A DNA stretch of 35,771 nucleotides, taken from Neodothiora populina (lineage: Eukaryota). Position numbers and translations under genes: made by a program. The first letter of the stretch is position 1, and every line of letters starts with the position of its first letter. Of the stretch, positions 1,514-34,885 are shown piece after piece. The notes under the pieces are model-generated. The model was not told the DNA's origin. It made no database searches and saw only the letters and a program-made list of their open reading frames with translations. Location of the stretch: contig NW_027191419.1 in NCBI RefSeq assembly GCF_041146345.1, forward strand, positions 868,001 to 903,771, written 5' to 3'.

Positions 1514-2909
1514 CTAATTTCTAGTCCATCTAAAGAAAGCTTGCCCGAACCACTGAGAAGGCTGGTCTATGGCGCGGTGGAAAAGTTCTGCACCCAGAAG
1601 TGTGGCCGGTAAACACACGACGAACACGACCGCCTTTGCTCCTGCGGTAGATATGTTTGTATCGACGAGGACAATGAAAATCTTGAGTCCGGCGGTGTAT
1701 AGAAGAATGGATTGTGAAACAAAGATACCTGCATCTGTTAGAACACGCAGTATGGGATGTAGAGTGGTATGACTTACTTAAAGAGCGGCTCCCCAGATAT
1801 CTCAGCACTTTGAAAGAAAGCAAAGACTGAGCCCTTTCAGATAATTCGAGTATGAGCAAAGTGCCCAGAATCACTAAGAAGTTGTCCAAACGCGGATAAG
1901 GTTGTTTTGAATCGAGGTTACCAAGTCCATCGGCGGGCTGCAAATGCTTTGCTGGGTGTATGGAGAGCTCGGCATTGATGTGACTCGGGAAGGCAGAGAC
2001 CCAGACATACTTGAGCGCAGTACCTATAGCGAAGAAGCCAAGAGCGAGGCTCCAGTAAGGCATCCTGAAGTCTACACTTGGAAGGCGTATGCCCCTTCCC
2101 AAAGCAGATCGCAATGCAGGGTTCAGCGACAGATCTGCAACTAGGAGTCCTACGGCAGAGTACCAGCCCCAAGTGTTGAACCAGAAGGAACCAAGGCCGA
2201 ACCAAATTAGACCCTGCAAATGCCACCCAGGTCGTGTGAATGGCAGAATAACCATGAAAGCAAACACCGTCCAGCTTTGGAAATAAATGACAGACACGAC
2301 CCAGAGTGTTCCCGAAGGCCACATCTGATTTCCCGCTTGAAGGGCAAAGTCTTGGTAAACCCACAGCAGATCGTAGATGGAGTTGAAGCCGGTTATAGCG
2401 TTGCTTGAAGCCCTCGGTGCCTCCAATGTGGAGCTCTTGAGCACGGATGCTGCTTGAGCTATGTAGGACACGTCGATGGCCGAGAAGATGGCTATCGAGC
2501 AAGCCAGAGCAATAGAGATCGGGATACCAACGCGAATGGGTCGCGAGATCAAAGTCCGTGCGAATTTTGGAGTTGACGCATCTTGAAGGAAGTGTATGCA
2601 TACTGTGCGCGCGGACAGGATGATGAAAAACGAGTATATTAAGGACTCATCCCAGAGGAGCGGAGAGAACACCTTTCGAATGATGACTTGATACGTCGGT
2701 TGAGACGCATAGTCATTGGCAGAATTGGAGACCAAAGCTGGTATAAAGGTCTGGAAGAACAGCCAAACGAAGCTCTGGACGGCGAGGATTCCACGGAGTC
2801 CAGTCAAGTAATCTTGTTTTGAAGAGTAGATTGAAGGCCGACGAGGCTGCTTTTGCAGCATCGTCTTGGCCGCAGCAAGCATACCTGGTGAGGGATTGGA
2901 TGGAGACAT
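1514..2909 (-). CDS. Acyltransferase-3 (AT3)-like multi-pass membrane protein, about 448 aa, 2 exons: complement(join(1514..1728,1778..2909))
   Basis: AT3-type motifs DYLTGLRGILA, FFIILSAR, RPIR, GTLWVV and many hydrophobic helices. Removing a 49-bp intron (GTAAGT at 1777, CTAAC branch, CAG at 1729) replaces the ORF-track tail with SIFVSQSILLYTAGLK...AELFHRAIDQPSQWFGQAFFRWTRN* (TAG 1514-1516). Confidence 0.85.
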
Positions 2910-4178
2910 GCTTGGGGAGCTGGCAGAGGACCGTGGAGGAGAGTGAGAAGTTGAAGCAGGCTTCGCGAATTATGCAAGTAGATAGAGTGACTTTCTGTTC
3001 TGACTACCAGTACTCTCAGTCGTACCAATCGCAGAGCGTGGTCTAGATCACAAGCATCTTTCGACATTCATCTCCATAAACGAGCGTCGCATAGGAACAA
3101 AATAAAAGGCAAGCTTCGTTACGCTATAAGACGATCAGATTCTGGTTCTGACGCGACGAAATCTTCATGACGACGGTTACGAAACATTCATTAATCCTGA
3201 ACAAAATACAGGCAGCGGCTCCTTACCCTTTGGAGGAAATGCAAATTTGAAATAAGATCCAAACGGCTTTATCGAACCTGCTGACAACGGCCGCTCGACA
3301 CTTGGTAGATATCCCATGTCATCGAGATCATCTCAATGATGCTGAAATCTGCCGAACCCCCAGGACTAGCAGAGATGTTGGATAGAGCACAGCTGTCAAC
3401 AGCAGAAAAGGGATGTCGGGCCATCTATGCAAGCGTAGTAAGCGCGAATGAATATCAGTAAATTTCTCCGTTATGTATTAGTAGTTCGTGAGAAATCGTT
3501 CAGCGGTTCAACGTTACAGGTAGGCCGTGCTTACAAACGCCGAGTCAAAGCGCCCGCCGAACTCCTTTGGAATCCGGCGCTACTGAACCTTAACCGTAGA
3601 TTCGGGTAATCGTAGAATCTCGGGTAAGCGGCCCGCCAGGTCTGGCAGCGTGAGGAACTACTGTAGACCATAAGGTAAGCATAGGAATTTGGCGAGGAAC
3701 TAGTCGACGACCCAAGTTGTATCCTACCTCCATCATACTTTACCTGTCTTATCATAAACGCACGCCATCAAGAGAGAACGTTCCGTCTATTTGGCGTTGC
3801 TACCACGCTTATCTGATAGCCTCGCTGTGGAGCATCTGAGACATTGTTCGAGGATGCGCTCATGGTCTCCTTGTGACTCTTTACCATTCGACATGTCTAT
3901 GACTCGGGTGACTCTCGTGAGCGGATCCTCCCTAGGTCTCGATTCTTTGGGAACGTTACCCCGGCCACTCAATAAACGCTATCGGGGTGACGAAGACGTT
4001 CGCTCACGGCCCTTGAATGTATATGGTCGCTACTGTCGATGTATATGAGTGAGACATCCATTGCTTCCACCCACATCAGCATGGGAGAGGGTCGGCCATA
4101 ATTGTGCAGGCATCCCTTTTCTCTTCTTTAATGTTCTTGACCCAGTTCCAAGCTTCATTGTTATTGTAAAACTCCAGC
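2910..4178. promoter_or_regulatory. Putative bidirectional promoter region between the two AT3-like genes
   Basis: Head-to-head ATGs at 2909 (-) and 4179 (+), about 1.27 kb apart, with no credible ORF between. Shared regulation is inferred. Confidence 0.5.
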
Positions 4179-7100
4179 ATGATGCGATCGTGCTTGATAT
4201 TCTTGGGAGCAGCAGCCTTGTCGCTGGCCGCCGACGTGCGGGACTGCTCGTGTGGTTTCGAGGACTTTAGGTCCGGACAGGTGTATACAGACGCAACAAT
4301 TGTGTACTTCAACGAAACAATCGGACCCCTTGAAGACTTCTTTTCGGAGGACTTTGCACATAAGAGAGAACATGGCTGGAATACGGTGTTCCGTGCTGGC
4401 GCGATCCCCGATAATGTGGCCATCGCCAATTCCACCCACCCTTCGTCGAATTGGAACGCACAATCACTCAATATGTTCATCGATCCAAGTACACCCAATC
4501 ATCTTGTGAAAGGAGCGTCGATCCAGTCAATGCGTCAAGACATGCATTATGGTTCCATAAGAGCATTCATGCGAGGATCTGATCCCTACTCAAGGCAAGT
4601 ACCCCATATATGTTGCCCATCGAGCAAGTCTAACTGTGTCTTTCAGAGGTTCTGCCATGTCAATGATCATGCAGCATAATCGGTCAAGTGGGTTCGACAT
4701 TGACGTTCTGAACATGGATGAATCAAGTTTAGCTCGTGTAACGACTCTCAAGAACGGAGAATTCCCATCAGCAAAACTGAGTGTCAATTACACCGCGGAT
4801 CCCTGGGGATTCATTGAAGTGCAGGTCGACTGGTCCAAACGTTATCTGAACTATACCGTCGCCCACAACAAATCACGTGTCGTGAGGAGCAAGTCTTCCA
4901 TTCCATCCGAGCCTTTGCCTCTGATCTTCAGGCACTATTCGACTGGCGACTCAAATTTCATGCAAGGTCCTCCTGTTCAACGAGCAGAAGCGAACGTTGC
5001 ATGGGTTCGCGCGTTCTTCAACTCTTCTTTGACGACAGAATCTAATCAGGAAGAGTTTGACGAGCGGTGCAGAACGGAAACGAAATGCAATGTCGATGAT
5101 ACGGAACTCCGAGGAGCGACCCCTTACAGCCCACAAGCATTAGTTCCATGGAAACAGCCCCCCCCGGACCATGGCTGGGGATTAGTTGCAGCCATTATCT
5201 GTGGAAGTGCGACCGCCTTGGGCGTCCTCACTTTAGTCAACGTGTTTTTCCGAAGGAAGCCTTGGAAGACCATGTTCAACGGCGAGAAGCGCTATGAACC
5301 AGCTGTGCTCGATCTTGGTCAACACCTTACGTCGACTTATATCCAGAAGCCCCTCAAGATGTCCGAAACCATAGAAGACCCGCCAGTCCTCCACTCAGAC
5401 GATCCGAAGGCCCCGGTTATCGCCTTATCCAAGGAAGACGAGAGTATGGATCAGATCGGAGATCTGGATGCGGGCGTACGGCGCAGAAGTATTTTCCGAG
5501 GAAGTCGACACAACTCTGTCCCTCATCCTCCAGACCAAAGTTCCCACAGTAGCTTTCCTGCTAAATCACCTAAGACCTCATTTGACGTCCGAGAGACTGG
5601 TCTTTTCCAAAGTAACTTCAGCTTCGGTGGCGAAAAAGCCGTCCCCGAAGTCACCACTTACGACTTCGCATCGTCATCAGCAAATATTCCACGACAGCGG
5701 CAGATGAGTCTGTTTGCCCAAAGTAGAATGTTCTCCACAGCGCAAGATCCGGAGGATGACGACACTCCTATACGCGATGTCAGAGAACGACAAGGCAGTG
5801 TCTTTCAAAGTGTAGTCCATTCCGTCACCAGGCTCGCCTCTATTGCGCCTCCTATTGCGGAGGACCCAGAGGATGTCCCGTCCAATGAGCACTTGGGTGA
5901 AGAATATAACATTGACATCAAGGAATGGAACACACAAGCACCTCAAGATATACCGACCGTGGACCCGCCGTACAACGCCTTCTTTGGCAATCGTCGACCA
6001 ACTATTGCAGAAGCTGTGCCAATTGCGTCCATCAATCTACCTCTTCGCCCTGCCAAATCCAAGGAAAAGCGAATTAATTACCTCGCTGGCCTTGTCGCTT
6101 TTGCGTGTCTCGGTGTAACAGCAACGCATTTCTGCTTGACCTTTGTACCTTATGCAGGTGGATTGGACCAGGGAATGCACTACAAGAGCGAGAACGTGGC
6201 GCGTTGGTTCGCCACACCGTACATCATGGATCCTATCTGGCTCGGCCCCCTCTTTGTAACGTCCTGTCGCTTCCTAGCTGGAGGTTTCTTCAAGAACGGA
6301 GACTTGAAGGAGATTGCACAGAGAATGTTGCTTCGAGCTCCCCGTATGCTTATACCCGCAATAGTAGTCGCCATGTTGGAATACTTTCTCCTCGAGGAAG
6401 GTCTATTGAGCTCGTTGGAATGGCTTCCTTCTATTTCCTGGTCTTCCTGGCCCTACATTGTTGACTACAACAACTTCGCCCAATTCATGAACGACACAAT
6501 CGAATTGGCATACTTGATTCCTAATGCTGCGCCCAGGATAGTGGAGCACTACTGTGTTGGCGTTCTCTGGACTGTACCAGTCCAGCTGCAATTCAGTTAT
6601 ACAGCTCTCTTGGCTGTAGTCATCGTTCGTGACATCAAGACACCTTACAAGCGATTCCTTGTATACGCGATCGCTATCCTTACGAATTGGTATGCCATCA
6701 GTTGGGGTGCTTGCTTCTGGTCGGGTGTGATGCTTGCGGACATGCAGATTACCTTCAAAGTGAGCAAACGGCTGCAGGCTAAGCCCATGGTATGGTATCC
6801 GCTTGCAGTATTCTTATGGATGCTCGCAATCGCTGCTCCTACAATGTCTATGCTGGAGGATCGTCTGAAGATACCAACAATGACTGGCGAGCATTACATC
6901 CATCCGGACCCGCTGACTGGTCATCCTATTGGACAAAGCCCTCGAGCTGGGTATCCCCGCTACTTTGAACCACGTCTTAACACTTTGGTGTTTGCGACTT
7001 GCATTCAATTCCTGCTTGAGACAAGTACTTGGTTCCAAGCTTTCTTCTCGTTGGGTTTCTGGCAGCCTATTTTCCCGTATGCATACACGGTCTATCTGAT

Positions 7101-7566
7101 TCACGGATTCATCTGGTGGACACTGGGCTCATACATGGTGGTACAGCTTGGTATGGCCGGTTTGCCTTACTGGGCCAATCTGCTGGTGACAGCTGTGTGC
7201 TGCTACCTCTGTCTGGCACTGGCGACGATTGCACTTTCGCCAGTGACAGACATGGCGAACGCTGCAGCTTGTCGCAACATTGAAAGATGGGCCACTGCTG
7301 CTCCAGTACCTACCAGAGCGACGTTGTCACCGTTTCCTCATGATCTCTTCTTCGGAAGACGTCCCGAGGATGACAAAGCAGACGGAGATGAGGAGGCTGG
7401 TACCAGACAAGATTCACAGGTTGATGTTAAAGTCCAAGATCAAGAAAATGAAGGAGGGAAGGTCAGAAGACCCACTCATACCACGATCCAGGAGGTGGAT
7501 TCGCTCAGCTCATCGACGAGCAACAGTGCTCGATCATATTCGAGTGGGAATGATGGCAATAGATAG
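4179..7566 (+). CDS. Fusion of signal peptide + GH16-like (ConA-fold) extracellular domain + TM helix + low-complexity linker + AT3-like multi-pass domain, about 1111 aa: join(4179..4594,4647..7566)
   Basis: Hydrophobic leader then DCSCGF; GASIQSMRQDMHYGSIRAFM and IFRHYSTGDSNFMQGPP resemble fungal GH16 proteins; TM GLVAAIICGSATALGVLTLVNVFF; C-terminal RINYLAGLVAFACLGVTATHF, LRAPR, VLWTVPVQLQFSY, AYTVYLIHG. ORFs 4179..4679 and 4636..7566 join in frame through a 52-bp GC-AG intron (4595..4646). Confidence 0.85.
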
Positions 7567-8110: not shown

Positions 8111-8670
8111 ATGTCGAACACAGAACACCACGAGCATGATAGCGTAGACTGGAAACATCAGGGCGTTCGTGTCGTACCGTCGAACTCGTTATCGACAGAC
8201 ACGGCGCAGACTCCTGGTATACATATAACGCTGTCCACCACCAATTCATCAGACAAGGTTACCCTGACCACAATGTAGGCATGAAACGTGCTGCCGCAAT
8301 CAATTTTGCGCGTGTCGGAGCGCAGCATCTATGGGCTGGTACAGTGACCATCGATGCCAACGCCAAGACAGGCGCTCACCATCACGGGCATCTCGAGTCA
8401 GTCATCTACGTGCTCAAAGGCAAGGCTCGTATGCGATGGGGGGCAAAGCTCGAGTTCGTCGCAGAGGCTGGTCCCGGAGACTTCATCTTCGTGCCGCCAT
8501 ATGTCCCCCACCAGGAGATCAATGCATTGGAAGATCAGGATCTGGAGTGCGTCCTCATGAGAAGCGATGGAGAAGCGGTTGCAATCAATCTTCCCGACCT
8601 CGAGCCTGTGGAAAAGCCCGAGCACGTGCCTTGGATTGATCCCACTCACGCCAACTTGGTTGACCTGTAG
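8111..8670 (+). CDS. RmlC-like cupin protein, 165 aa: join(8111..8216,8279..8670)
   Basis: Cupin motifs TGAHHHGHLESVIYVLKG and GDFIFVPPYVPHQE. Upstream exon MSNTEHHEHDSVDWKHQGVRVVPSNSLSTDTAQTPG joins in frame through a 62-bp intron (GT at 8217, CTGAC branch, TAG at 8278). Confidence 0.9.
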
Positions 8671-10845: not shown

Positions 10846-12133
10846 CACGGTGGCTTAAAGGCCGAGATTTCGTCTTCGTCTTAGGTCTCCACCAACACGA
10901 AACACAAGGGTCCAAAGATTTTCCAAATCGTCGAGGCTTGGCGTACGTCAACTTCGCTCTCCTGCTGTGCTTGCCCGATCTTCTGTTCAGCTTCGCGTTA
11001 AGCACTCCGTACTTGTACAGCGCACACAGCCGCTTTGCGTAAACCACGTAGATCTCTCTAAGTTGTATCCAGCATGACACTCGGTATAATCCAGTACTTG
11101 CTGTGCTGGTCCAGTGAGGTAGATCAGAGAGTGGAATCCCGTTCTTCTCCGGATTATCCTCCGCGTCCAACGCGCGTCGCTCCTCGTATCCGTCGATCTT
11201 TCACTGAAAATGATTGCTGGAAAGCTTTTCTGGTGGATGACTGATGTGCAATACGTGTAAGGGGCCTCGACAACCTGGACGTTGATCGTAATGTGATCGC
11301 AATGCGATCTCAATGGAACATCCTTTTGGTCTACGCGAGACACTGTCAGAGAGAGAGCACTCGAGTCACATTTCATCATATGGTAAGCATCGCTTGATAG
11401 TCTACGGTCCCACCGTTCGAGGCAGTATGGCGCATGCATTTTTCGACTTCTACAGTAGTAGCACCGAAGTCGTGTTTACGTCCGTTCAGTCTTCTCACAG
11501 ACATCACTACCTCCTCAGTGACCATGGCCAGTCGACCAAGTAGTAGTAGCCTGGGCGTTTGGTGTCGTCAACGCACAATCTTCGATGCCTTTCTCAGATC
11601 GATTGCGAGGTTCTCGGAGGTCCAATGCGATGAGTTGATGAGTTGAAGTCGCACAATGCTGTGAAGAGTTGAGGTATGTCGTCGATATACTCAGAGCCAC
11701 GATGGGTGAAGTACGGAGTACAAACCACCTGATTCAGCCTTGAAAGCCTTAGTTCTGGTCGGCAGCATTCACGTGGAAAGCCAGGACTCGTAACCTCCGA
11801 CCTCGAAAAGCGGTACCACCATATCAAGAGCTCGTCAGGGTCATCAGATACTTCACCCTGGACTTTCTGATCCACGACACTGAAGTACCTGTGCACCAAG
11901 TTAAGATACGGTAGGGTAACTGTAAGGTAGGGCTAAGGATGGACTACCCCGCCTTGCATCTTTGTACAGTACAATGTACTATTGCGCTTCGTTATTAACC
12001 GCTCTACCGGGTTTTCTCCTGCTGATCCCAACCATGAGTTCGTCTTGACTTCCTTTTCTCTAGGATCCTACGTAAACCCGATACTCCGCGATGCTCGAAC
12101 ACACCGCATTTTGTATTGCTGCGGGCTGCTGCT

Positions 12134-14065
12134 ATGCAAGAACAAGACGAATCTCCTCAGTGTGGTGAGCACTCAAAACGCATCGGCTCAATATCCAGGG
12201 CGGGTGCAGCCTATCCAAGAAAGAGGGCTATCACCGCATGCCAGATCTGCCGTGCCCGCCGCACTAAATGCGATCAAAAGAAACCCTCTTGTTCCTTCTG
12301 CGAAAGAATTGGAGCGGAATGTATCTCCGATCCAGCTGCATTGTCAGCTTTCGATCCTGCCAGTATTGATATCATTGGACGTCTAGAGACCTTGGAGCAC
12401 AAGCTTGATGGCCTCCAAAAACTCGGATCTTCGAACGCATTTGTGAACGAGAGTTACGATACCACGCCGAATACCTACGCTCGATCTGAATCATACTTTG
12501 ATAAAGACCCGAAAAGGTTCATGCCGCAAAATCTTGATACTGTCACGACCTGGCCTATCTTCCGAGAACTTGGTGCCTCGTATTCGTCAAAGTCTCATCT
12601 TGGTGATAGTTCTTCAAACCTGCTATATCCTCCAGGGTCTATCTCGTCGATTACTGACGAGCTTTCTCCTGCTCTCTGCGCCCTTTGGCTGGACAACTTC
12701 TTCCACATCGTCAATGTGAAAAACCCCATACTAAAGGAGCTGGAGACCAGGCGATTGGTACGTCAGGTCTGTATGGAAGGCACAGGATGGGATGCCGAAT
12801 CGTGTCTCGCGCTGCTCGTCTGTGCCAACGGAGCTTTGGCGCAACCATTTCCTCAGCCTTCACTTTCCTCCGACGCCATAAAATCCTTGGCTGCGTATGC
12901 ATTGTTCCATGCAGCGCAGAAACGCTTTGGTCCAGTCATGATGACGGCAGGCGTCATACAGGCACAATGTTCGTACCTCACGGGTGTCTTCCTGATGTCG
13001 TGCCTGCGTCCACTTGATGCATGGCGCATGTTCCTGCAAGCGCTCGCTACTTGCCAAACCTTCAGCTTTCGCAAACCTCGCGAATTTGCGATGACAGTCA
13101 TCAATGGTAGTGTAGCAACGGCAGAGGAGACTGTATATTGGTCTTCGCGGAAATCCGAGCGAGAGCTGAGATGGGAATTAGGCTTACCAGACTTCAACAA
13201 TCCGACATTGTCGCCACCTGAGCTATTCCCGAGTTTGGCGGAAGGCTGCGAAGGGGAGAACCTTCGGGGCTGGTACTTTTACTTGTCCGAGATTTCTCTC
13301 TGGCGCCTCGAGACCGACGCGAAGATCTCGATCAGTAATATTCTACATAAGGACCAGAGTCGGATCCTTGATAGACTAGCCGAGCAGGGGCTAAACAGCC
13401 TCGAGCAAGTCGTGGCGTGGCAAGACTCGCTTGCGCCTGCGGTCAGACTCCTCGAAGATGGGCAGCCGATCGAGATTGACGATGTCCTGCGCTTCATCCT
13501 CCGGGGGCGAACAACATACGTCCATGAGCTAGTAACATGGCCTTCCCTTTACGCTGTCATAAACGAGGGCGAACAGTCACCTCTTGTTCGCAGCTGGGCT
13601 GCCAAGGGTTGTGCTTTCCATCTTGAGAGACTTGCGATCAATCGTCCGGGCTTCTATTACAGACATCATGGTACATGGCTAATGCTAAGGTCCTCAGCGC
13701 GTAGTGCCTGTATACTGTTGCTTGTAGCTCAAACTCACTCAACTCTCGACTTACTCCCAGCACGCTGGCAGGAAGCTGTAGTCGCCACTATTGATATGCT
13801 CGTGTTCTGGCGAAGGACTGTCCACGAAGCTGATGAAACAGTGACACTTTTACAACGTCTGTTGCACAACGTCTGTTGGCTAGCGCGCAAAAGATGCAAG
13901 GATGATACCATATGTAACGATAGCAAACGCATACTTGTAGTGAAATTGCGCCGCTGCGTGCGAGTCGAGACTTTACATCGTATTTGCATTACACTCACTA
14001 TACAATACAGCAGAATCGCATGCGATAGTCCCTTTAGAACACAAATGGCATTGGGGTTCAGATAG
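12134..14065 (+). CDS. Zn(II)2Cys6 binuclear-cluster transcription factor; C-terminus probably altered by a frameshift
   Basis: First ATG at 12134; CQICRARRTKCDQKKPSCSFCERIGAEC cluster preceded by RKRAITA; downstream FFHIVNVKNPIL, EETVYWS, WYFYLSEISLWRL and YRHHGTW typical of fungal regulators. No intron required. Confidence 0.9.
   Translation: MQEQDESPQCGEHSKRIGSISRAGAAYPRKRAITACQICRARRTKCDQKKPSCSFCERIGAECISDPAALSAFDPASIDIIGRLETLEHKLDGLQKLGSSNAFVNESYDTTPNTYARSESYFDKDPKRFMPQNLDTVTTWPIFRELGASYSSKSHLGDSSSNLLYPPGSISSITDELSPALCALWLDNFFHIVNVKNPILKELETRRLVRQVCMEGTGWDAESCLALLVCANGALAQPFPQPSLSSDAIKSLAAYALFHAAQKRFGPVMMTAGVIQAQCSYLTGVFLMSCLRPLDAWRMFLQALATCQTFSFRKPREFAMTVINGSVATAEETVYWSSRKSERELRWELGLPDFNNPTLSPPELFPSLAEGCEGENLRGWYFYLSEISLWRLETDAKISISNILHKDQSRILDRLAEQGLNSLEQVVAWQDSLAPAVRLLEDGQPIEIDDVLRFILRGRTTYVHELVTWPSLYAVINEGEQSPLVRSWAAKGCAFHLERLAINRPGFYYRHHGTWLMLRSSARSACILLLVAQTHSTLDLLPARWQEAVVATIDMLVFWRRTVHEADETVTLLQRLLHNVCWLARKRCKDDTICNDSKRILVVKLRRCVRVETLHRICITLTIQYSRIACDSPFRTQMALGFR
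13852..13878 (+). repeat. 14-bp-period tandem duplication ACAACGTCTGTTG-C-ACAACGTCTGTTG inside the TF coding region
   Basis: Identical 13-mers at 13852-13864 and 13866-13878. Confidence 0.9.
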
Positions 14066-14912
14066 ACACCAACCAAACCAGAGAAGATGACGGTATCAAT
14101 TGCGAGCCTCTGTGGCACAGGCAGATGTACAGGACTCTTCTGGAGTGGCGTCACGTTCAAATCAATTCGTATTGTTGACCTTAGATTATGCAGAACCTGA
14201 AATCACAGCTTGTATCATCAGATTGGAACCATGAGCTCAAAGACTATAATCTCCGCTTACAGGAGTTACAGTACTGCTTATGATCATTATTGTGCAGTTG
14301 TTGGTCTGTTGGTCTTGGGAGGCTGAAATCTCGACGCCTCGTATCCAGCCGCGCTGCAAGAAACGTGATATCTATTTTTACCGGCCTACTACCTATGGAG
14401 ACACAATAGAATGCTATCGAGCCGCCTTTGCTTCGATATAGACTTCATAGCCTAACGGGCTTGGCTGATTGGTTGAACACGAGCCTGAGCCACCTGTATG
14501 TCGACTCGCCTGTTTTTGCACGGAGCTTTAGCGTACCGGACCGATCCTAGATGCATGCGGAGTCATGTCAGCAGCGGGACATCTCTCGGAGCTGAGTCCA
14601 CTGTAGAGTAGGTACAGCTCGAGATCATAGGGTACATAAAGACATCTATGTAAAATATGTTTGGGAGCTCAGCATAGTTGAGGTAAATGAGAAATCGTTG
14701 AGCGTTATTGACATACTGCTTGCGCTTGGTCTAAAGAGTATACACCTTGCATCGGATTCACAGGCTGAGATGGTCGCCGTAGCACATCTGAAGCTCGATC
14801 GAAGATGTTTATGATCCCTACAACGATCTCTCCAGGATCTTGTCACCAAAATGGGAACATTAGCCTGCTAAACGGCAGGTGCAAAATGCCGGTCGCGTCA
14901 AGAAATAAGTTC

Positions 14913-17156
14913 TTAGAAGAAATGCGAGCAACTCAATGCAGGCGAACTACCAGCAGACGAACTGACCTCAATGAGGACTTCTTTGCCTGGCAGATGGAAT
15001 CGACCGCCTGCCCAGCGCTGAAGAGGCACTGTTGAAGCTTGGATCGCGATGGTCTCTGACTGACCGGCATCCAAATCTACTGGTCTGAAGCCCAACAAAT
15101 TTCGGAGGGGGAAAGTCTGCAAAGCCCGGTAGACCATATACTTGGGATACATATCTTCCGTGTCGGGTGCCTGTGTTGGTAACGCTAACATATACCATGA
15201 ATGAGTCTGAACCGCTTGGAGGCTGAATTGTGTCAACTTGAATGCTGTTGATGGAAAATGTGGTGTACGACAATCCGAAGCCGAGGGGGAAAGCAGCTTC
15301 GACACCGAGTCTGTCGAGTAGAGCTTGCCCGAACCAACGGTCATAGACAATCTCTGTTGCTTCCTTGTCGAGAAACGGTAGGTGGCTCTCATCTTTTGGT
15401 ATAGAGAACGGAAGCCTGCCAGAAGCGTCGATACGACGAGGAGAACGTCGGCTAAAGCATGACCACCCTCGCAGCCAGAATACTAACTCAGCAGTAACGC
15501 AGAAGTCTTGTCCTTCCAATCTTCCATGATGACCGCGCCAGCAGTAATTACCGAAACAATAGTACTTGGATTGGCGGCGGTTACACTGTCGATAATTGCC
15601 ACGTCTTCGGGTCGAAGCCTGAGCGATTCACGGTCTCCGCCGCCTCCCACTTCGAGTCCGGTGTCCGCTGCATCCTCACTGATATTGCATTGAACAATGG
15701 AGAGAGTCTTCTTGTCTTCGTTCGTCTCCGCAAGAGGGAGAAGTTCAGGGAGACAAGGGTCAAGTTTCAGAGATGGCACCACATATTCGCCCTCATCTGT
15801 TGCATCGTAACCAACAATGCAGATTACCAGATCAGCAGAGCTAGCGAGAGACCCAGCATTGGCCGCGGAGTCCGTGTCATCAAGCACAACTTCTGCATTC
15901 GGTAGCGCTGCCTTGATACCTGCATATGGCGTCACTACGTGCGGCGAGAACACCTGTGATGAACCTTTGTCTCCAGTGTTTGACCTGTTAGCCAGTCGGC
16001 CAACGACCACGACCCTCGACAGTTTAGTAACATCTAAGGGCAGCAATCCTCTTCCATTGACAGGTGTGTTCTTCAAGAGGACCACGGACCGAGCAGCGGC
16101 CTCTCTTGCCAAGGACCTGTGGGAATGGCTGAAGACGACCGTGGAATCAGGTTGGCTTGCTTCGGTGGAGATAGACGACGACAATTCCTTGAGAAGAATG
16201 TTATAACAGGCTCGATTGACATCTGACCATTGAAGATCGCCAGAACGCAATGCTTCAGTCAACGCCAAGCTACGCTGCTGAGTGAAAGGTGCCTCAATGT
16301 CCAGGCCGTTCTTCAAAGACTGCACGGAATTGCGAAGGCCAAAGATGAAATCTGACAGAACGAATCCATCAAATTTGTACTCGTTACGCAGAATTCCGGT
16401 AAGTAGTTGTTTACTTTGTCCAGCCCATTCGTTATTCACGGAATTGTAGGAGGACATGACAGATGCCACCCCTCCATCGATGACTCTCTTGAAATGAGGA
16501 AGATAAACTTCTCGAAGCACATCTTCCTCTATAGAAACATTGACTCTGAACCGAGCATTCTCCATCGAGTTAAGTGCAAAGTGCTTGACACAAGCCATGA
16601 CATGGGTTTGCACACCTTGGGTGAGTGCAAGTCCGAACTCTCCAAGTAGCAGCGGATTTTCGCTGTATGTTTCTTGTATACGGCCCCAAGCTGGGTGACG
16701 TGGCAGGTTGATGCACACACCCGCAAAGTAATTAGCACCTAGCGCCTTTGATTCCAATCCGATAGCATCTCCAATGCGACGCTCCAGTTCGACATCCCAT
16801 GTGGCGCCTCGGCTCATTGATACAGGAAAGGCTGTGGACGAGCCCATGACAACTCCTCTCGGACCATCTGTGAAGCGAATACCCGGGATCCCCAATCGCG
16901 GGATCTCGCCCATAATGAAAGGCTCCCTGTTGTAGCGATCGCACAGGATTTTGTTCAGTCCCGTGTAGAATTTTTCATCACCATCAAGAAGCGAGAGACG
17001 TTCGACCTTCGTCATCTCAGCGATAAGAGAGTGCACGGCTTGATCGATAGGCCGTCCGTGTTTGACTTGAAGTATCGCATCTTGGAAAGTGAAGGGCTCT
17101 TCGAGATCATCCGCACTCGAATCTTTGGGAACGTGGGCTGGGATGACACTGAACAT
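14913..17156 (-). pseudogene. GH3 beta-glucosidase/beta-xylosidase-like gene disrupted by one nonsense codon and two frameshifts
   Basis: GH3 motifs IPRLGIPGIRFTDGPRG, WGRIQETYSE, CVKHF, FDGFVLSD, SVVLLKN. TAG at 15483-15485 replaces Trp in S*YSGCEGGHALADVLL; 1-nt loss near 15437 before RIDASGRLPFSIP and FPLGFGLSYTTF; 1-nt gain in the homopolymer at 15107-15111 before RNLLGFRPVDLDAGQSETI (FN3-like tail). Confidence 0.88.
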
Positions 17157-17795
17157 CGTTACTTGCTTGGCCGAGCACGTTCTGAAGAATTTGGTAACAA
17201 ATAACGGAGGGCCGAACAGGGAATGATGGAGAAAGGATGACACGGAAAACTATGAGAGAGATAGCTGGGATATCAAGGTTTCAAGTAATCCATAACTCTC
17301 TTAGCCATTGATACATCGCCTGTCTATGAGCATGTGACACCGGGGAAAATCAGCTTTCATATTTTATATTTTACGAGACCCGTCAAATTGTTGGTTCAGC
17401 GTCTTGGTAGGAGACGACTCAAAACGCGGACCATGTAGATATTGGGAATTGGGACTAGAAAAATCCCGATTGTTGTATTTGGGGTGCGCCATACCATCTT
17501 GGCCTGTGATAGAGCACTCATGCTTGCTACATACGTTTTGCTATCTGTATTTCGCCATGTGTACGATTACTCTGAATACATAAAATGAAATGAATTCTAA
17601 TTATTGGAGAACAGTAATTTGATTGAACATTGAACTGATATGTAACATGGTATATCGCGATATAATCTACATATTCTTTCGCTATTGCATGCTCGTCGAG
17701 CTAATTCCAGATGATTACCCCCTTTCTTGTTCATTAGACTTCGTCATTCTATAACGATCACATCATGATCCGCCACAATGGCTTAAAATCCAAAT

Positions 17796-23124: not shown

Positions 23125-25286
23125 ATGCATTCTGGAGGAGGTAACAGCGGTCATGACGCTTTGTCAAAGAGACGGGCGCAATTCGCAGGGCCGTCAGGTA
23201 TCAAGGGCATTCTACAGAATCCAAAGATCTTCGCCTTGGCTGTCTTTGCCTCGCTTGGTGGATTTGTATATGGCTGTAAGTAAAGAGGGCTTCTTTCTTG
23301 TTGTTATGTGTACTGATAAGAGCATTCAGACAACCAAGGTTTGACATCTGCATCTCGGTTTGCATGATGGCACTAACTCTGTATCTAGGAATGTTTGGAC
23401 AAGTCCTAAACATGCCATCTTTCGCAAACACAGTCCACCCAGAATCAATCACGAACACTACTTTGAGAGGATTTCTTACCGCGTACGAATATTGCAACCT
23501 TGACTGTGATCTCATGACTGACAGACATAGCATTCTCGAGCTCGGAGCGTGGGTTGGAGTTCTGATCAATGGTTATACTGCGGACAAGTTCGGCCGTAAA
23601 CTGGCTACCGTCATTGGTGTATTCGTCTTCTGCGTTGGTGTTATCGTTCAAGCATGTGCCAAGAATGCCGACTATATCCTCGGGGGACGCTTCGTCACTG
23701 GTCTCGGTGTCGGTATCTTGTCTATGATCGTTCCACTGTAGGTTTTGCCACTCTTACTCGATGAGATTCATGTTGACCATGTTCATAGTTACAACGCCGA
23801 ACTCGCCCCAGCAGAGATCAGAGGCTCGCTGGTATCGCTACAACAACTTGCCATTTGTACCGGAATCATGCTCAGCTATTGGATAGGTCAGTAAGCTCCC
23901 TCGTATGAAATACGTGGCTGTACTCATGGAGCTATCACAGGTTACGGAACCAACTTCATTGGAGGCACTGGTGAAACCCAGTCTAACGCCGCATGGTTGA
24001 TCCCAATTTGCATCCAACTCTTGCCAGCAATCATTCTCGGCATCGGCATCATGTTCATGCCGCAGAGGTGAGCTATGGCGCATGCTGTGGAACGCAGGCA
24101 ACTCTGCTGACATACGTGATAGTCCCCGATGGCTTGTTTCGAATGGTCAAGAAGAGGGCGCTCTCTCAGTTCTTGCTCATCTTCGAAGATCACCAGCTAC
24201 TAGCGAAGCTGTGCAACTAGAATTCCTTGAGATCAAAGCGCAGCATATGTTCGAGGTTGAAAGATCGATTGCCAAGTTCCCTAACTACCAGTCTGGCAGC
24301 TTCATGGACAACTCCAAGTTGGGATTCTACGACTATGCAAGCTTGTTGACTAACCAGTCTCTACGCAAGAGGGTCATGGTTGCAGTGTTGGTCATGGCTT
24401 TCCAGCAATGTATGTTCCGATGCTTCTGAGGATGATGTAGTTACTAATTATCGCAGGGTCCGGAATCAATGCCATTCTCTACTACGCAGCTTTCATCTTC
24501 AAGGACCTGGGACTGACAGGAAACACGACTTCGTTGCTTGCTTCTGGTGTTGGCGGAATCCTCCTCATGTTGGCAACCATCCCTGCAGTCCTTTATATCG
24601 ATCAACTTGGCCGTAAGCCGGTGCTCATCGCTGGCGCCATCGGCATGGGCATCTCACACATCATCGTTGCTGCGCTCTACGGGAGTTTTGGCAATAACTG
24701 GCAATCTCACGCCGCCGCTGGCTGGGTCGCCGTGGTGTTTGTATGGATCTACGAAATCAACTTCGGTTATTCATGGGGCGTGAGTGGAGATCCGCGCTGC
24801 AGATATCGTCCGGAAGAAGGTGCTGACTCGTTGTATAGCCTGGTGCATGGGTCCTTGTCGCAGAGGTTTTCCCGTTGGGAGTTCGTGCTAAGGGTATCTC
24901 TATTGGAGCTTCTAGTAAGTCAATTATATAGATACTCACGCTCGTCCCTCGAGACTGATTTCGATACAGGCAACTGGTTGAACAACTTTGCAATTGGACA
25001 AGCGACTCCAGACATGGTCAAGCACATGGGTTACGGAACCTTCATCTTTTTCGGCCTTATGTGCTTCTTAGGTGCAGCCTTCATCTGGTTTTTCGTCCCC
25101 GAGACCAAGAATCTTACCCTGGAGGAGATGGACGAGGTCTTCGGTGACGAAGCTGGAAACGCCACTGAAGATCGTGTAAGACTCGATAGGATCTATGGCG
25201 AGCTCGGACTTATCGAGACGAGTCCATCTCTGCACGAATATACCAAAGAGCCAAAGGTCAATGGGGAATTTGTTGAGCACAAGTAG
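23125..25286 (+). CDS. MFS sugar porter, possibly a pentose/xylose transporter, 10 exons: join(23125..23275,23330..23338,23389..23482,23531..23737,23789..23886,23941..24067,24123..24409,24457..24779,24839..24914,24970..25286)
   Basis: Nine GT-AG introns restore LGGFVYGYNQGMFGQVL, ADKFGRK, LGGRFVTGLGVG, LYNAELAPAEIRGSLVSLQQL, PQSPRWL, QQWSGINAILYYA, WGPGAWVLVAEVFPLGVRAKG, SNWLNNF and FVPETKNLTLEEMD. Frame appears intact. Confidence 0.93.
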
Positions 25287-30477: not shown

Positions 30478-31938
30478 TTACACGTAATCTGTGGTAGTAG
30501 GGTTCATTGCGTAGCGATTCCATATCTCGTCAGTCATCATGCGTGACCATGCGTCGTCTGAGAGATCGACGAGCATTTCCACAGTTCCTTCCGGAGCATC
30601 GGGCGGACAAGGCAAAATGATCTGGAAGCCGGAGCAGACGCCATGCGCTGGGAAGCGTACAGCTTTGAGATGATGACCAAAGGCAGGACCCCACTCGATG
30701 TTGTAGTAATCGAACTCTCTCCAATTACTCTGAAGTACATTGGCGCCTGGCATATCAAGGAAAGCAATTCCAGCAAGACGGTTAACATCGTCCATGTTCT
30801 CAATGTAATGTGCCAATTCATCGTGATAAGACTTATCGCATTTGGCCACAGCTTGTCGCACTGAAACAGCTAGATCGGCGAGTGATGCTGTGTCAGGGGA
30901 GAGCACATGCGAGAGAGGCAACGCGATCGCAGCGTACCCCAGGATGTTACCCAGTGTGTGAGGGTGGATTGTTTCATGGGCACGGCGCCGCGCATCCAAA
31001 GCAACCTGGGCAACTGAGTGCTTATCAGCAGCGATTGTCGAGTGATCAGACTGTTCAGCCCGTTGGACAGATCTCCAGAGTAGAGCTGTAAGAACATCGT
31101 TGGTAGTGACGAATTCAGGCAATTCGGCGGCGGGGATTTTGTCCTTCAGCAATCGTACGTTGCGAGGTGCACACTCCTCTTTAAGAGCCCTAATAGCCTC
31201 TGGTGTGAAACGGAACACATGTGCGTGGTGTTGCGCCTTTGTCAAACCGTCTGGTAGGCCTTCTGGAGTAAAAGGCAGATGGACAAACTCCAGATGCTCT
31301 TGAGCAAAGTTGGCGCAAGCGCGGTCTTTATTGCTGCGGAGTAGCTTTGCACGATCCGTGATGGGAATTTCGGCAGCCTGATGGATAGAAAGACCTTGGG
31401 CACGGCGTACATCCTCAGCAAACAGTTCGATGAATTTCCACATAGTCGTGCCATCGGCGAAGGCATGGAAGCATAGGTGGTTGAGGAGTAGACCGCCCTT
31501 GATGAGGTTGGCCTGCATCATGTTTGTCGGAAGCCTGTCGACACCGAACGTTGGCCACTCTCCATTGCGCCCACGAAGGCACAACTTCTCAGTGTCCATG
31601 CTAGCATTTGGGAAGTTCTGTGCTTTCAGCTGCGCGAACGAAGGCAAACCTGGGTCACTGCGGTGGTCTTTCACCACAAAATCTACGATCTCACCCTCGC
31701 GGTAAGGTTGAAGCTTGAGCATGCCTGTTGGCTTCACATCCGGGCCTACAGGCACTGCCTCAGTGCCGACCATGGGTGTTCTTTCCTTGAAACTGGCCCA
31801 CGCAGATTTGAGTATCGACGTTATGTGGCTAGCATCATATTCCGAATCGAGTTCGAGACAAAGCATATCGCGGATCCATCCTTTTGGTCCAACCTGTTCT
31901 AATGCCAGGAGGACTGGTGCTTGTTCGATTCCACCCAT
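30478..31938 (-). CDS. CoA-dependent O-acyltransferase, Transferase family (Tri101/BAHD-like), about 486 aa
   Basis: HxxxD motif FHAFADG after QANLIKGGLLL; TNDVLTALLWRSV; LDARRR...LGN; DFGWG-equivalent NIEWGPAFG. First in-frame ATG at 31938; uninterrupted ORF. Confidence 0.9.
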   Translation of the reverse strand: MGGIEQAPVLLALEQVGPKGWIRDMLCLELDSEYDASHITSILKSAWASFKERTPMVGTEAVPVGPDVKPTGMLKLQPYREGEIVDFVVKDHRSDPGLPSFAQLKAQNFPNASMDTEKLCLRGRNGEWPTFGVDRLPTNMMQANLIKGGLLLNHLCFHAFADGTTMWKFIELFAEDVRRAQGLSIHQAAEIPITDRAKLLRSNKDRACANFAQEHLEFVHLPFTPEGLPDGLTKAQHHAHVFRFTPEAIRALKEECAPRNVRLLKDKIPAAELPEFVTTNDVLTALLWRSVQRAEQSDHSTIAADKHSVAQVALDARRRAHETIHPHTLGNILGYAAIALPLSHVLSPDTASLADLAVSVRQAVAKCDKSYHDELAHYIENMDDVNRLAGIAFLDMPGANVLQSNWREFDYYNIEWGPAFGHHLKAVRFPAHGVCSGFQIILPCPPDAPEGTVEMLVDLSDDAWSRMMTDEIWNRYAMNPTTTDYV

Positions 31939-33395
31939 AGTCGAAACCAACTACCTTGATAAAGAACAAGAGACTAGCTCGAAATTTATCCAAAAAAAAT
32001 AAAGGGAAGAAGGTCACTGAGAGTCGTTGATAGTTGTGGTATTGCACTGCTAAATACTTGACACAATCTCTCGCATTTGATCTTGAGACATGGATCTTCA
32101 AACTCAACTTGATGATCGAGCATTGGACGGGCTGCTACTCTTCTGATAGCGTTAATTGTTTGCGAGATTAGAAAGTGGGACCTCTCATTGGTAAGTCTCA
32201 GACAGCAATATATAATGGTCGACATATGGGGAATCTGCTAATGCTCATCAACAATAGCATGCTTTTCAAGTGTCAGATGGCGGTAGAGAGATAGTGAGGA
32301 GCAGATCCGTGCCAAGTGCAGGACTACGTACGATTAATATATATCTACCCTTGGACGTGCCCTTAATGTATCACGCCTTTCCGTACAGAGAGCGGTACAT
32401 AGCGATCGGTAGCACGATGGCACGGACCGGCCCCACTACAACTTTTCGAAAGTCTAATTCTCGGCTCCTCTTGCGTCGATCGACCCAACCTGAACGAAGT
32501 TCATATGATCCCCTATTATCGTTTAGGTGTCAACTGCGCAACGTGGCATACTGTGGTTGCTGCTGAGACTAGCTCAATGGCAATGTTCCTAGCCTTTCAA
32601 ACTTAAGTTGTGACCAACACCTGTTAAAGCAGGTGCTTAGCATGTGGGAGGGGCAGAAACTATCCCAACAGCATAAGAGCGCTGATTGGTTATACAGATG
32701 TATGCATTAATGTAACAAGATTTGTTCATCTGCCTTAAAAGTAAGGAACGCGTCGGTCGGAAGGATGTCGTATCAGTTCCAAAGTGTCGAATGAAAGACA
32801 TCCTTTCCAGTGTTCCACACCAAGTATCAGTGGGAAGTGGAGTAGTTCGACAGAGCGCGGACTGTAAGATCATCGTAGTCTACTAAACCTTGTACTCCAG
32901 AAGAAGTCTCTATCGATATTTTGTTAAGTTGAGTGCTTACACAGGCCTTGACCTCTCCTCTCGGCTATAGTCTGTCACTGGAGTGTTCTTGATGGTCGCG
33001 ATGGAATCTACATTAAACAAAACGACCCCTGATTCCTGCAGAGTCCTCTCGCAAAAATTCTGCTTGCTGGTGATCTCATGGAAGGCTCATAAGGCTGGAC
33101 ACTGCTCCACAGAGTCATGTGAATTTGTATCTCTTTGGTCAATATATATTCAGCTACTGGGCCACATTAGTACCAGAAATTTGGTGTTCCGAGGCTGTGC
33201 TAGATATGAACCTGATTTGACCAAACATCCCCTGATACCAGTGAACTTGGCGAGACCGGAGCTGAAAGCCACAAACGACCTTATACTCGGGAGGCGCTGA
33301 CATACTCGATACGTCCGCATCGATTCAATTGTTGTTGCAATCCGAAGACGCCGTTTCAGTCTGCTCTAGGTACAACACACTTCGGTGGACGTAGA

Positions 33396-34885
33396 ATGTC
33401 GCGGATTGATCCTATTATCGAAGCCGCGTTTGGACCAGTCCCGGAGGGACTCGACCTAAGTGGCTCTAATACAGTGGAATACGACCTTGTCTCGTGTGTG
33501 GTTCTTGGGCTTGCAACTGCAGCGGTCGCCCTACGATTTTACGTCCGAGCCGCACACAATGCACAGCAGAGAAACCTGGGTATCGATGACCATACTATAC
33601 TCCTCAGTCTTGTAAGATCGAAGTCCCATATCTTCCGCGCTACAAACCCTCCCGACTCGTATAATCGTACTAATTGCTGGGATTGTACAGTTCTGCACTG
33701 GAGCTCTTGTTGCTACAACTGTTATTGGTGAGCATCCCCATCCCCCCCATCGACCCGCCCACAACCCTCTGCACCATGATCGCAACCCGACACTCTCTAT
33801 GAGACCCTGCTGACACAAAATGTACTATAAGCTGGCAAAAATGGATCAGGGACCCATGTGTGGTCGATGAATCATTATCGGCTTACAACCCTTCTAAAGG
33901 TAGCGTGTCGCTCTGCACTGCTTCCAGATGTGCTTGAACACTTATGTTAAAACTCTCCCAGATCGTCTACGCCGAGCCGTATGTCTACGGCGCAGCCGTC
34001 TCATCGACTAAAATCAGTATCCTGCTGCTATACCGACGACTATTTTTTGTGCCAAGCAACACGATAATCAAAACCGACCTCGTGTTTCCCATTATGTTTT
34101 GGATCGCCACATTCTTCACATGCACTTACCCTATCATTTTATGGACTGTCATGGCTTGTGCCTGCCGTCCCATCAATTTCTATTGGGAACAGTATACCGG
34201 AGCTAAAGATGGCTTTTGCATCGATGTCCTACAGTTTTATTTGATATTCGGCATCATCAACATGGTGAATGATGTTATTATCTTGGCCGTGCCTATCCCG
34301 AGAATATTGAAGCTACAGATGAATACTAAAAAGAAAGCATCGATAGTAGGAGTTATGCTGCTGGGTAGTTTGTGAGAACATTGCTGTCTCCTTTATTTTC
34401 AAAAGCTAATAAGACTTAATATCAGTGTCTGCATTGCCAGCATCGTCCGCATTTACTATCTCCACAAGCTGACGACAGACATAGACATGTCCTACATCCT
34501 GGGCCCAGGGTTTGGATGGTCTAGTCTTGAACCATCGGTCGCAATAATCTCGGCTTGCTTACCGACCTTTGCGCCACTTTTTGTAGGCCTCAGGAACAAG
34601 GGATCTAGCAATAACACCGGCGACAAGATCAATAGTAGTACTGGCTATCTACGTAATGATCCACGTAGTAATCACATACGTCTCGACAATTTCGACAAAC
34701 CGGATTTGGGCTGTATGCATGGGGAGTCTCAGTTCTACATCGAGGACGGTGACGAGGTGCACTTGACAGACAATAACAATTTTCGGGAAACTTTGAGCCA
34801 GGATTCAGACAATTCTGAGCAAGGGAACAACATCATGGTAAAAACACAAGTTCAGATTGTGACGACGGATTCCACGATTCGTTGA
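33396..34885 (+). CDS. Pth11-like integral membrane protein (fungal rhodopsin-like domain, no CFEM), 5 exons: join(33396..33611,33691..33727,33832..33899,33962..34371,34426..34885)
   Basis: AVALRFYVR, LGIDD, GSGTHVW, KISILLLYRRLF, CRPINFYW, NDVIILAVPIP, LGSFVCIASIVR, WSSLEPSVAIISACLPTF; four GT-AG introns restore one frame. Confidence 0.9.

Follow-up and report, generated by a model that had tools for sequence, protein, structure and literature searches.

A catalytically degenerate GH16-like domain fused to an AT3-type membrane core in Neodothiora populina, with its AT3-like paralogue, as candidate components of a fungal surface-glycan O-acylation system

What would two acyltransferase 3 (AT3)-like membrane proteins, one of them fused to a glycoside hydrolase family 16 (GH16)-like domain, do side by side in a fungal genome? 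The question is raised by a 35,771-nucleotide stretch of the Neodothiora populina genome (contig NW_027191419.1, positions 868,001 to 903,771; hereafter the window), in which the span 1514–7566 coincides with two divergently transcribed, head-to-head genes. The spliced models of both genes are identical to database proteins of N. populina, namely the small protein AAFC00_000251 (P0032; 448 aa, minus strand) and the fusion protein AAFC00_000252 (P0001; 1110 aa, plus strand). A sequence-only reading of the window had described a head-to-head pair in which both genes encode AT3-like domains. The spliced models, together with profile and fold matches, confirm this description, in the case of the small protein at the level of the superfamily. 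The balance tips somewhat towards a locus that encodes two acyl-transfer subunits of a fungal surface-glycan O-acylation system serving a polysaccharide made by a family 2 glycosyltransferase (GT2).

The membrane core of the fusion protein (6076..7296, plus strand; residues 615–1021) was modeled as a bundle of ten transmembrane (TM) helices with a predicted local distance difference test score (pLDDT) of ~65–89. The AT3 profile PF01757 matches residues 616–997 over profile positions 3–321 of 326 with 24.6 bits (E 1.6e-5) against a cut-off of 31. When six members of the fusion family were scanned with PF01757, four passed (41.8, 35.0, 32.6 and 31.2 bits), AAFC00_000252 fell below the cut-off and P0013 gave no match; among 25 fusion relatives, 18 have an AT3 match at E<=1e-3. 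A structure comparison (VIA) of residues 613–1006 with the human acetyltransferase HGSNAT (8jkv_A) gave Z 13.9 with an rmsd of 5.0 over 290 aligned residues. The AT3 core is also the best conserved portion of the fusion protein in the family alignment.

The small protein is less readily classified. AAFC00_000251 has no match in Pfam, and the matches of its family (n=31) are all weak: DUF418 in 7/31, AT3 in 4/31 (best E 0.0024) and Cas1_AcylT in 1/31. The small-family profile found 0 matches among PDB sequences at E<=10, and a Foldseek search of the structure model against the PDB returned nothing at E<=1e-3. The model itself has a pLDDT of 82.8 and a predicted TM-score (pTM) of 0.82. By VIA, its best matches are HGSNAT (8jkv_A, Z 15.2, rmsd 4.6, 289 aligned; 8tu9_B, Z 15.1) and GWT1 (8xik_A, Z 10.4), after which the next row drops to Z 5.0, such that solved TmAT proteins alone stand above the drop. 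The 10-TM core fold of the TmAT superfamily is therefore present in the structure models of both proteins. Searched against 1.84 billion representatives, the small-family profile retrieved 930 proteins at E<=1e-3, including proteins of 1030–1399 aa that were aligned at their C-termini, four of them with both GH16 and AT3 Pfam matches. It also reaches a canonical AT3 protein (P0338, PF01757 114.9 bits) at E 5.5e-22 and P0256 (PF01757 31.9 bits) at E 1e-69. Since the profile-profile alignment described below, the reach to PF01757 proteins and the fold match agree, AAFC00_000251 is AT3-like at the superfamily (TmAT) level. Six relatives of the small family (P0254, P0264, P0265, P0269, P0270 and P0288; 573–691 aa) have N-terminal extensions of 140–350 residues in which no Pfam domain was found, and may represent a third architecture of the family.

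When the AT3 region of the fusion family was aligned with the small family by hhalign, 404 columns were matched (98.9%, E 3e-17), while a BLASTP comparison of the two N. populina proteins with each other was not significant (E 0.15). Both cores also share a lineage-specific "HP ... PRL(N/D)" loop. As judged from the hhalign alignment, the profile search hits and the shared TmAT fold, the small protein is a paralogue of the fusion AT3 core. The similarity is distant enough by BLASTP that the duplication appears to be ancient, with both copies kept.

The two paralogues differ in a motif that is central to AT3 activity. A R/K-X10-H motif in the first TM helix (TMH1) is common to all 31 bacterial AT3 acetyltransferases that were aligned by Pearson 2020 (PMC7448272); in OafA, the R14A and H25A substitutions leave 0.07% and 0.33% residual activity, respectively, and the arginines of a RXXR motif are essential as well. 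In the fusion protein, TMH1 (VAFACLGVTATH; 6094–6129, plus strand) keeps the His and has Val at the Arg position. In the small protein, TMH1 (RGILAVQSFVWL; 2760–2795, minus strand) keeps the Arg and has Leu at the His position. The same division is seen family-wide. At the Arg position, the fusion family (n=25) has Val in 24 members and Ile in 1, and the small family (n=31) has Arg in all 31; at the His position, the fusion family has His in 25/25, and the small family has Leu in 15, Ile in 12 and Val in 4. Each paralogue thus retains the half that is missing from the other. The RXXR motif after TMH2 is present in both families: as RAPR in the fusion (6334–6345, plus strand; R701 25/25, R704 25/25) and as RPIR in the small protein (2532–2543, minus strand; R123 31/31, R126 30/31). 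The fusion family also has a near-invariant arginine (R613) eight residues upstream of the TMH1 Arg position. A missing His need not imply inactivity, since GWT1 lacks the TMH1 His and is nevertheless an acyltransferase (JBC 2025, PMC12423673).

The amino terminal half of the fusion protein contains a GH16-like β-sandwich (4257..5025, plus strand, spanning an intron; residues ~26–264, pLDDT ~60–84). PF00722 (GH16) matches residues 94–252 with 25.0 bits against a cut-off of 22, and a GH16 match at E<=1e-3 is found in 17/25 fusion relatives; of those without a match, several are models truncated at the N-terminus. A Foldseek search of the GH16 model against the PDB gave 161 matches at E<=1e-3, led by a lichenase (1u0a_A, E 1.6e-7, TM-score by target 0.72). 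The 43 of these 161 matches that were listed are all GH16-type enzymes and include the transglycosylase Crh5 (6ibu_B, E 1.1e-6). By VIA, ranks 1–30 are likewise GH16-type, with a lichenase (3i4i_A, Z 19.4, rmsd 2.8, 200 aligned) and Crh5 (6ibu_A, Z 18.6) among the top matches.

While the fold is kept, the catalytic E-x-D-x(x)-E motif of GH16 is not found in the fusion family. In an alignment of the family profile with the Fibrobacter lichenase, l-E-i-D-l-l-N stands opposite V-E-V-D-I-E-V-L (from the lichenase stretch VEVDIEVLG). The corresponding strand of AAFC00_000252 is DIDVLN (4696..4713, plus strand), in which Asp stands in the place of the nucleophile and the acid/base Glu is missing. 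Among the 24 relatives in which the catalytic region is present, the acid/base Glu is absent from all (0/24) in either register, where Leu, Met, Val, Ile or Cys is followed by Asn (23) or Ser (1). At the nucleophile position, 16 relatives have Glu, 4 have Asp (AAFC00_000252 among them), 2 have Tyr, and Thr and Ser are found once each; the middle Asp (Asp157) is retained in 23/24. Because the acid/base Glu is missing family-wide, the GH16-like domain is, by its active-site residues, not a hydrolase. Other features of the domain are invariant, namely an HWSxGD strand, FFNSS and two Cys pairs. Since these persist despite the lost acid/base Glu, the fold seems to be under selection for a function other than hydrolysis, and it may serve as a glycan-binding module.

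The order of the parts suggests how the fusion protein sits in the membrane. Residues 1–19 form a hydrophobic, signal-peptide-like stretch. The GH16-like domain is followed by a single TM helix (5173..5253, plus strand; residues ~314–340), after which the basic stretch RRKPWK is found. A disordered linker, predicted to be cytosolic (5278..6072, plus strand; residues 349–613, ~265 aa), with pLDDT <50 and gappy, variable alignment columns, leads to the AT3 core, and a second basic stretch, KSKEKR, lies ahead of AT3 TMH1. Seven N-x-S/T sequons are present and all precede the TM helix. The overall pLDDT of the AlphaFold model is only 56 because of the long disordered stretch. In OafA, the Arg end of TMH1 is oriented towards the cytosol (Pearson 2020, PMC7448272). 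From the signal-like N-terminus, RRKPWK past the TM helix and KSKEKR before TMH1, AAFC00_000252 should be a type-I membrane protein with the GH16-like domain outside and the AT3 core in its usual N-in orientation. The sequence-only reading had assigned the fusion gene a signal peptide, a GH16-like domain and several sequons, and had proposed a profile hidden Markov model search for both domains. These assignments hold: the N-terminus and the seven sequons are as described, PF00722 scores above its cut-off and is joined by the fold matches, PF01757 is matched in 18/25 fusion relatives, and both proteins have TmAT folds.

The company that the two genes keep in other fungi was surveyed in 78 loci from a scan of metagenome contigs, 28 of which extend 6 kb or more upstream of the matched fusion gene and could be tested (tblastn). 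At 95% nucleotide identity these 28 loci fall into 19 groups. A small-family gene and a GT2 gene both lie within 10 kb of the fusion gene in 25/28 loci, or 17/19 groups, and pieces of GT2 or AT3 genes are seen at the ends of the shorter loci. Three gene orders are seen among the 17 groups: small AT3(-), GT2(-), fusion(+) in nine; GT2(-), small AT3(+), fusion(+) in five; and small AT3(-), GT2(+), fusion(+) in three. Clustering of open reading frames (ORFs) of at least 100 aa from 17 group representatives and the window produced AT3 and GT2 as the only conserved families. As no further common family was found, the flanks are not conserved. The other recurring "families", which would have been candidates for a fourth cluster gene, are shadow ORFs on the AT3 and GT2 genes and were rejected.

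The three-gene unit was found in black yeasts and plant-pathogenic Dothideomycetes, including Aureobasidium, Cercospora, Pseudocercospora and Dothistroma/Lecanosticta. Consecutive locus tags or accessions were identified in Elasticomyces (LTR66_005694/5), Acrodontium (R9X50_00642700/800), Neophaeotheca (g6658/g6659), Chaetothyriales (DV736_g4600/1) and Aureobasidium (KAI4717447/8, CAD0014703/4 and THX47898/9). The three testable loci that lack the unit, namely L028 and L029 (10001-11961 in both, with a match from residue 225 only) and L078 (10672-11099, a weak match to residues 882-1024), contain neither a GT2 nor a small AT3 gene within 10 kb and may represent a separate AT3 paralogue outside the cluster. 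In one Aureobasidium-type locus (L004), an ATP-grasp-like gene (14404-15575, plus strand), annotated as "glutathione synthetase ATP-binding domain-like", is the immediate downstream neighbour of the GH16-AT3 gene; neither the window nor any other locus contains it. A cluster of proteins at 90% identity (P0007), represented by a 1251-aa Aureobasidium GH16-AT3 protein, also includes 374-aa ATP-grasp-like proteins that are unrelated to it (BLASTP E 0.34). The mixture probably arose from a fused gene model in some assembly that chained the two neighbours.

The linked GT2 has the features of a processive synthase. It matches PF13632 at 75 bits, and among the cluster-type GT2s the signatures QR[LM]RW and [TCV]EDID are present in 122/123 and 121/123, respectively. 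A tree was made of the best 120 database GT2s and three locus ORFs, a set with no Cps1 or Cps2 reference sequences, and the cluster-linked GT2s are scattered through one broad group of it. Fungal Cps GT2s are divided into Cps1 (also CpsA, ZtGT2 and MoGT2) and a patchy paralogue, Cps2 (PMC9500679; PMC5653360); the product of Cps1 is described as unknown (PMC9500679). In Zymoseptoria tritici, the cluster-type clade is represented by XP_003855770.1, on the 3.86-Mb chromosome, while ZtGT2 is XP_003857553.1, on chromosome 1. As the two differ in accession and chromosome, the Cps1 orthologue of this species is a gene other than the cluster-type GT2. Protein ids 35809, 38873 and 65552 have no row in the King 2017 supplements, where two matches to "35809" are a coordinate and a value in fragments per kilobase per million (FPKM).

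Some genomes have two cluster-type GT2 copies, as in Acrodontium crateriforme (P0127 and P0149) and Coniosporium tulheliwenetii (P0105 and P0209); in Acrodontium, one copy alone (R9X50_00642700) adjoins the small AT3 gene. In one lineage (L053 7217-8788 and L065 4146-5615), the GT2 is strongly diverged, with 22–28% identity to the remaining cluster GT2s and no Pfam match at E<=0.01, and is still placed between the two AT3 genes.

A physical association of the two cores was explored by co-folding residues 600–1030 of the fusion protein with the small protein. The score was 0.84 (three runs: 0.84, 0.84 and 0.83), compared to 0.00 for the best of three controls. The pass mark used here is reached by 51/78 solved complexes and 2/108 mismatched pairs, and for eukaryotes by 39/65 and 2/126. 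At least 82% of contacts recur between the runs, and the partner pLDDT is at least 81. The interface is pseudo-symmetric, being built from corresponding elements of each chain, the shared HP loop among them. The model suggests that the two cores form a heterodimer.

Taken together, a glycan O-acylation module would be the most economical explanation of the pair. The cores would take acyl groups from acyl-CoA in the cytosol and pass them through the plasma membrane, and the GH16-like domain would hold a nascent or wall-bound acceptor β-glycan at their outer mouth, the part taken by SGNH in OafA and OatA and by the luminal β-sandwich in HGSNAT. The two cores would act as a heterodimer in which the small paralogue is an obligatory partner. 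The substrate would be the polymer of the Cps-type processive GT2 that accompanies the pair in relatives, its synthase not being adjacent in N. populina. A bolder and distinctly speculative proposal, more doubtful than probable, is that an obligate asymmetric heterodimer has split the ancestral TMH1 motif, so that the Arg on the acyl-CoA side is left to the small protein alone and the His on the exit side to the fusion alone, and would form with the Cps-type GT2 a synthase-acylase machine, the product of which would be an O-acylated surface polysaccharide in melanised Dothideomycetes, Chaetothyriales and other Leotiomyceta.

Several results weigh against the O-acylation proposal. The AT3 score of AAFC00_000252 is under the Pfam cut-off and AAFC00_000251 is without any Pfam match. 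Neither protein has the complete R/K-X10-H motif, and neither is a textbook AT3. The direct head-to-head layout occurs in 0/17 groups: 12 have the GT2 placed between the two genes, and the remaining 5 have the two in tandem. No GT2 was found in the 35.8-kb window, where tblastn with eight GT2 queries at E<=10 gave noise (best E 0.12); the 30 long ORFs of the window have no GT2 Pfam match, and no GT2 remnant was detected in the intergenic region (2910..4178) by tblastn at E<=10. There is also no N. populina protein among the best 120 GT2 relatives. The co-fold was run without alignments, and as the chains are paralogous and an HGSNAT homodimer has been solved, its passing score may reflect an ancestral or remembered homodimer interface. 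Conservation of interface residues does not differ significantly from that of the remainder (means of 0.70 vs 0.66, p 0.13; 0.63 vs 0.58, p 0.06). The sequence-only reading, in which the pair modifies a wall polysaccharide or exopolysaccharide, is accordingly upheld in part. It gains from the AT3 and GH16 folds, the dead GH16 site, the co-location of the genes and the GT2; it loses on layout conservation, on a GT2 in the window and on the textbook TMH1 motif. Its expectations of synteny and of a co-occurring glycosyltransferase were borne out by the same 25/28 loci as regards co-location, not as regards the head-to-head arrangement or the window itself.

The absence of half of the essential TMH1 R/K-X10-H motif from each core, along with a catalytically dead GH16 and the tight linkage to a processive synthase, would also fit a pair of non-catalytic accessory subunits of the GT2 synthase (a channel, chaperone, anchor or chain guide) that perform no acyl transfer. 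This is unlikely given that the TMH1 His is invariant in the fusion (25/25), that RXXR is kept in both proteins and that GWT1 is an active TmAT without the His (PMC12423673); moreover, the pair persists in N. populina where no GT2 is adjacent. That same lack of an adjacent GT2 lends something to a different substrate, with the pair acylating a secreted glycolipid or biosurfactant, the glycan of a glycoprotein or a small metabolite. Relatives of Neodothiora have been reported as biosurfactant producers, and the window contains a BAHD/TRI-like transferase (30481–31950), a GH3 and sugar transporters. However, a processive GT2 is the sole conserved neighbour in 17/19 groups, the remaining genes of the window do not recur beside the pair, and the nearest structures to the GH16 fold are enzymes with a β-glucan cleft, all of which makes a non-polysaccharide acceptor improbable.

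A GH16 domain that works as an active Crh-like transglycosylase in the cross-linking of wall polymers, with a separate or vestigial function left to the AT3 core, is very improbable. Crh5 is among the best structural matches (6ibu_A and 6ibu_B) and Asp157 is retained in 23/24; however, the acid/base Glu is absent in 24/24 in either register, the nucleophile position varies among E, D, Y, T and S, and it is the AT3 core that is the best conserved part of the protein. Finally, the two genes are paralogues and their head-to-head layout is unique to the N. populina lineage, as might be expected of neighbours left by a local duplication that have no joint function. Mere adjacency of this kind is scarcely credible when the genes are co-located in 25/28 loci despite three gene orders and unconserved flanks, and when their likeness is so distant (BLASTP E 0.15) that the duplication must be ancient with both copies retained. 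Glycan O-acylation stays the favored reading of the locus.

This reading may be considered against known systems. The bacterial AT3-SGNH proteins OafA, OafB and OatA similarly combine a 10-TM AT3 core with an extra TM helix and an extracytoplasmic glycan-acceptor domain (PMC7448272), and their RXXR and TMH1 His are found in the fusion protein too. In contrast, the partner domain of the fusion is an N-terminal, dead GH16 fold rather than a C-terminal SGNH, the TMH1 Arg is replaced by Val or Ile, and a second paralogue without the His accompanies the fusion. No SGNH/GDSL match was found by Pfam in 25 fusion-family members, which matched PF00722 and PF01757 only.

HGSNAT is closest in its order of parts. 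It has a signal peptide, a luminal β-sandwich, TM1, a cytosolic loop and a TmAT core, is a dimer, and transfers acetyl from cytosolic acetyl-CoA to a luminal glycan (bioRxiv 10.1101/2023.10.23.563672). Human HGSNAT (8jkv, 8tu9) shares this order with the fusion and heads the structural matches of the small protein (Z 15.2) as well as those of the fusion core (Z 13.9). However, its sequence identity to the cores is 7–10% and no PF07786 match is listed here. The fusion has a ~240-residue GH16 outer domain and the ~265-residue linker; and where the partner of HGSNAT is a second copy of itself, here it is a paralogue, by prediction only.

The proposed acylation of the product of a processive GT2 by a genetically linked, stand-alone AT3 has bacterial parallels in IcaA/IcaC, for poly-N-acetylglucosamine (PNAG), and in NodC with NolL/NodX. 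IcaA and NodC are GT2s, and NolL and NodX acylate the product. These are bacterial operons; the present case is fungal and has two AT3 paralogues and a GH16-like module. IcaC is a stand-alone AT3 and a suggested O-succinylase (JBC 2025, PMC12423673). Among eukaryotes, the animal NRF-domain AT3 proteins, such as Drosophila DRD and C. elegans NRF-6, also have a fused N-terminal domain; unlike the fusion, that domain is NRF and not GH16, the targets are given as unknown and, in the text of the source that concerns them, linkage to a synthase is not described (PMC12423673). The linked GT2 is a membrane GT2 of the same general kind as the fungal Cps proteins (Cps1/CpsA/ZtGT2/MoGT2 and Cps2), although the Z. 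tritici cluster-type member is not ZtGT2 and the window has no such gene. Lastly, the GH16 lichenases and Crh transglycosylases share the β-jelly-roll and its long cleft with the fusion, whose best matches are β-1,3-1,4-glucanases and Crh5; here, in contrast, the motif is degenerate and the domain is tethered through the membrane to an AT3 core.

At the level of the gene models, AAFC00_000251 is composed of exon 1 (2909–1778, minus strand; residues 1–377), which holds TMH1 and the RPIR motif, a 49-nt GT-AG intron (1777–1729), and exon 2 (1728–1514; part of residue 378 to residue 448 and the stop), the spliced product being P0032. A 1269-nt intergenic region (2910..4178) separates the divergent start codons and is presumed to be a shared promoter region. 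Exon 1 of AAFC00_000252 (4179–4594, plus strand) covers the signal-peptide-like N-terminus together with the initial half of the GH16-like domain; in the database model, translation begins at the second Met (4182). A 52-nt GC-AG intron follows (4595–4646; donor GCAAGT, CTAAC branch site), and exon 2 (4647–7566) encodes the rest of the GH16-like domain, the TM helix, the linker, the AT3 core, a C-terminal tail and the stop, yielding P0001. A GT donor for this intron was considered and rejected, as the sole in-frame alternative does not pass the frame test and the GC donor is the one borne out by the database protein. Because the intron divides the GH16 domain, Pfam searches of separate exons gave a weak AT3 match alone and none to GH16; the full proteins were then used. 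Existing database labels are "GH16 domain-containing protein" for the fusion and "Acyltransferase 3 domain-containing" for some small-family members.

Elsewhere in the window, ORFs with Pfam matches encode a cupin (8143–8667, plus strand), a Zn2Cys6 transcription factor (12038–14062, plus strand), a GH3 β-glucosidase (14916–17249, minus strand), a sugar/MFS transporter (23280–25283, plus strand), the BAHD/TRI-like soluble acyltransferase (minus strand) and a protein with a fungal rhodopsin domain (33938–34882, plus strand). None of these genes is kept beside the pair in the related loci, as determined by ORF clustering.

The sequence-only reading had known of no characterised fungal system with this arrangement, and a literature search likewise found none; no description of a GH16-AT3 fusion, of the pair or of the three-gene cluster was identified. 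As far as the text of a 2022 review bears on them, characterised eukaryotic AT3 proteins are few, with worm and fly examples only. Cps1 mutants have strong growth and virulence phenotypes, and the products of Cps-type GT2s are described as unknown (PMC5653360, PMC9500679). The pattern at this locus suggests a system, not described before, that makes and acylates a surface glycan, and in its two cores a motif may have been divided between paralogous subunits. Through the fusion, the partner domains of AT3/TmAT proteins gain a new member, a glycoside hydrolase fold reused as a presumed acceptor-binding module. With three genes that stay together despite reshuffled order and changing flanks, the unit provides a testable handle on a fungal surface polymer and its modification.

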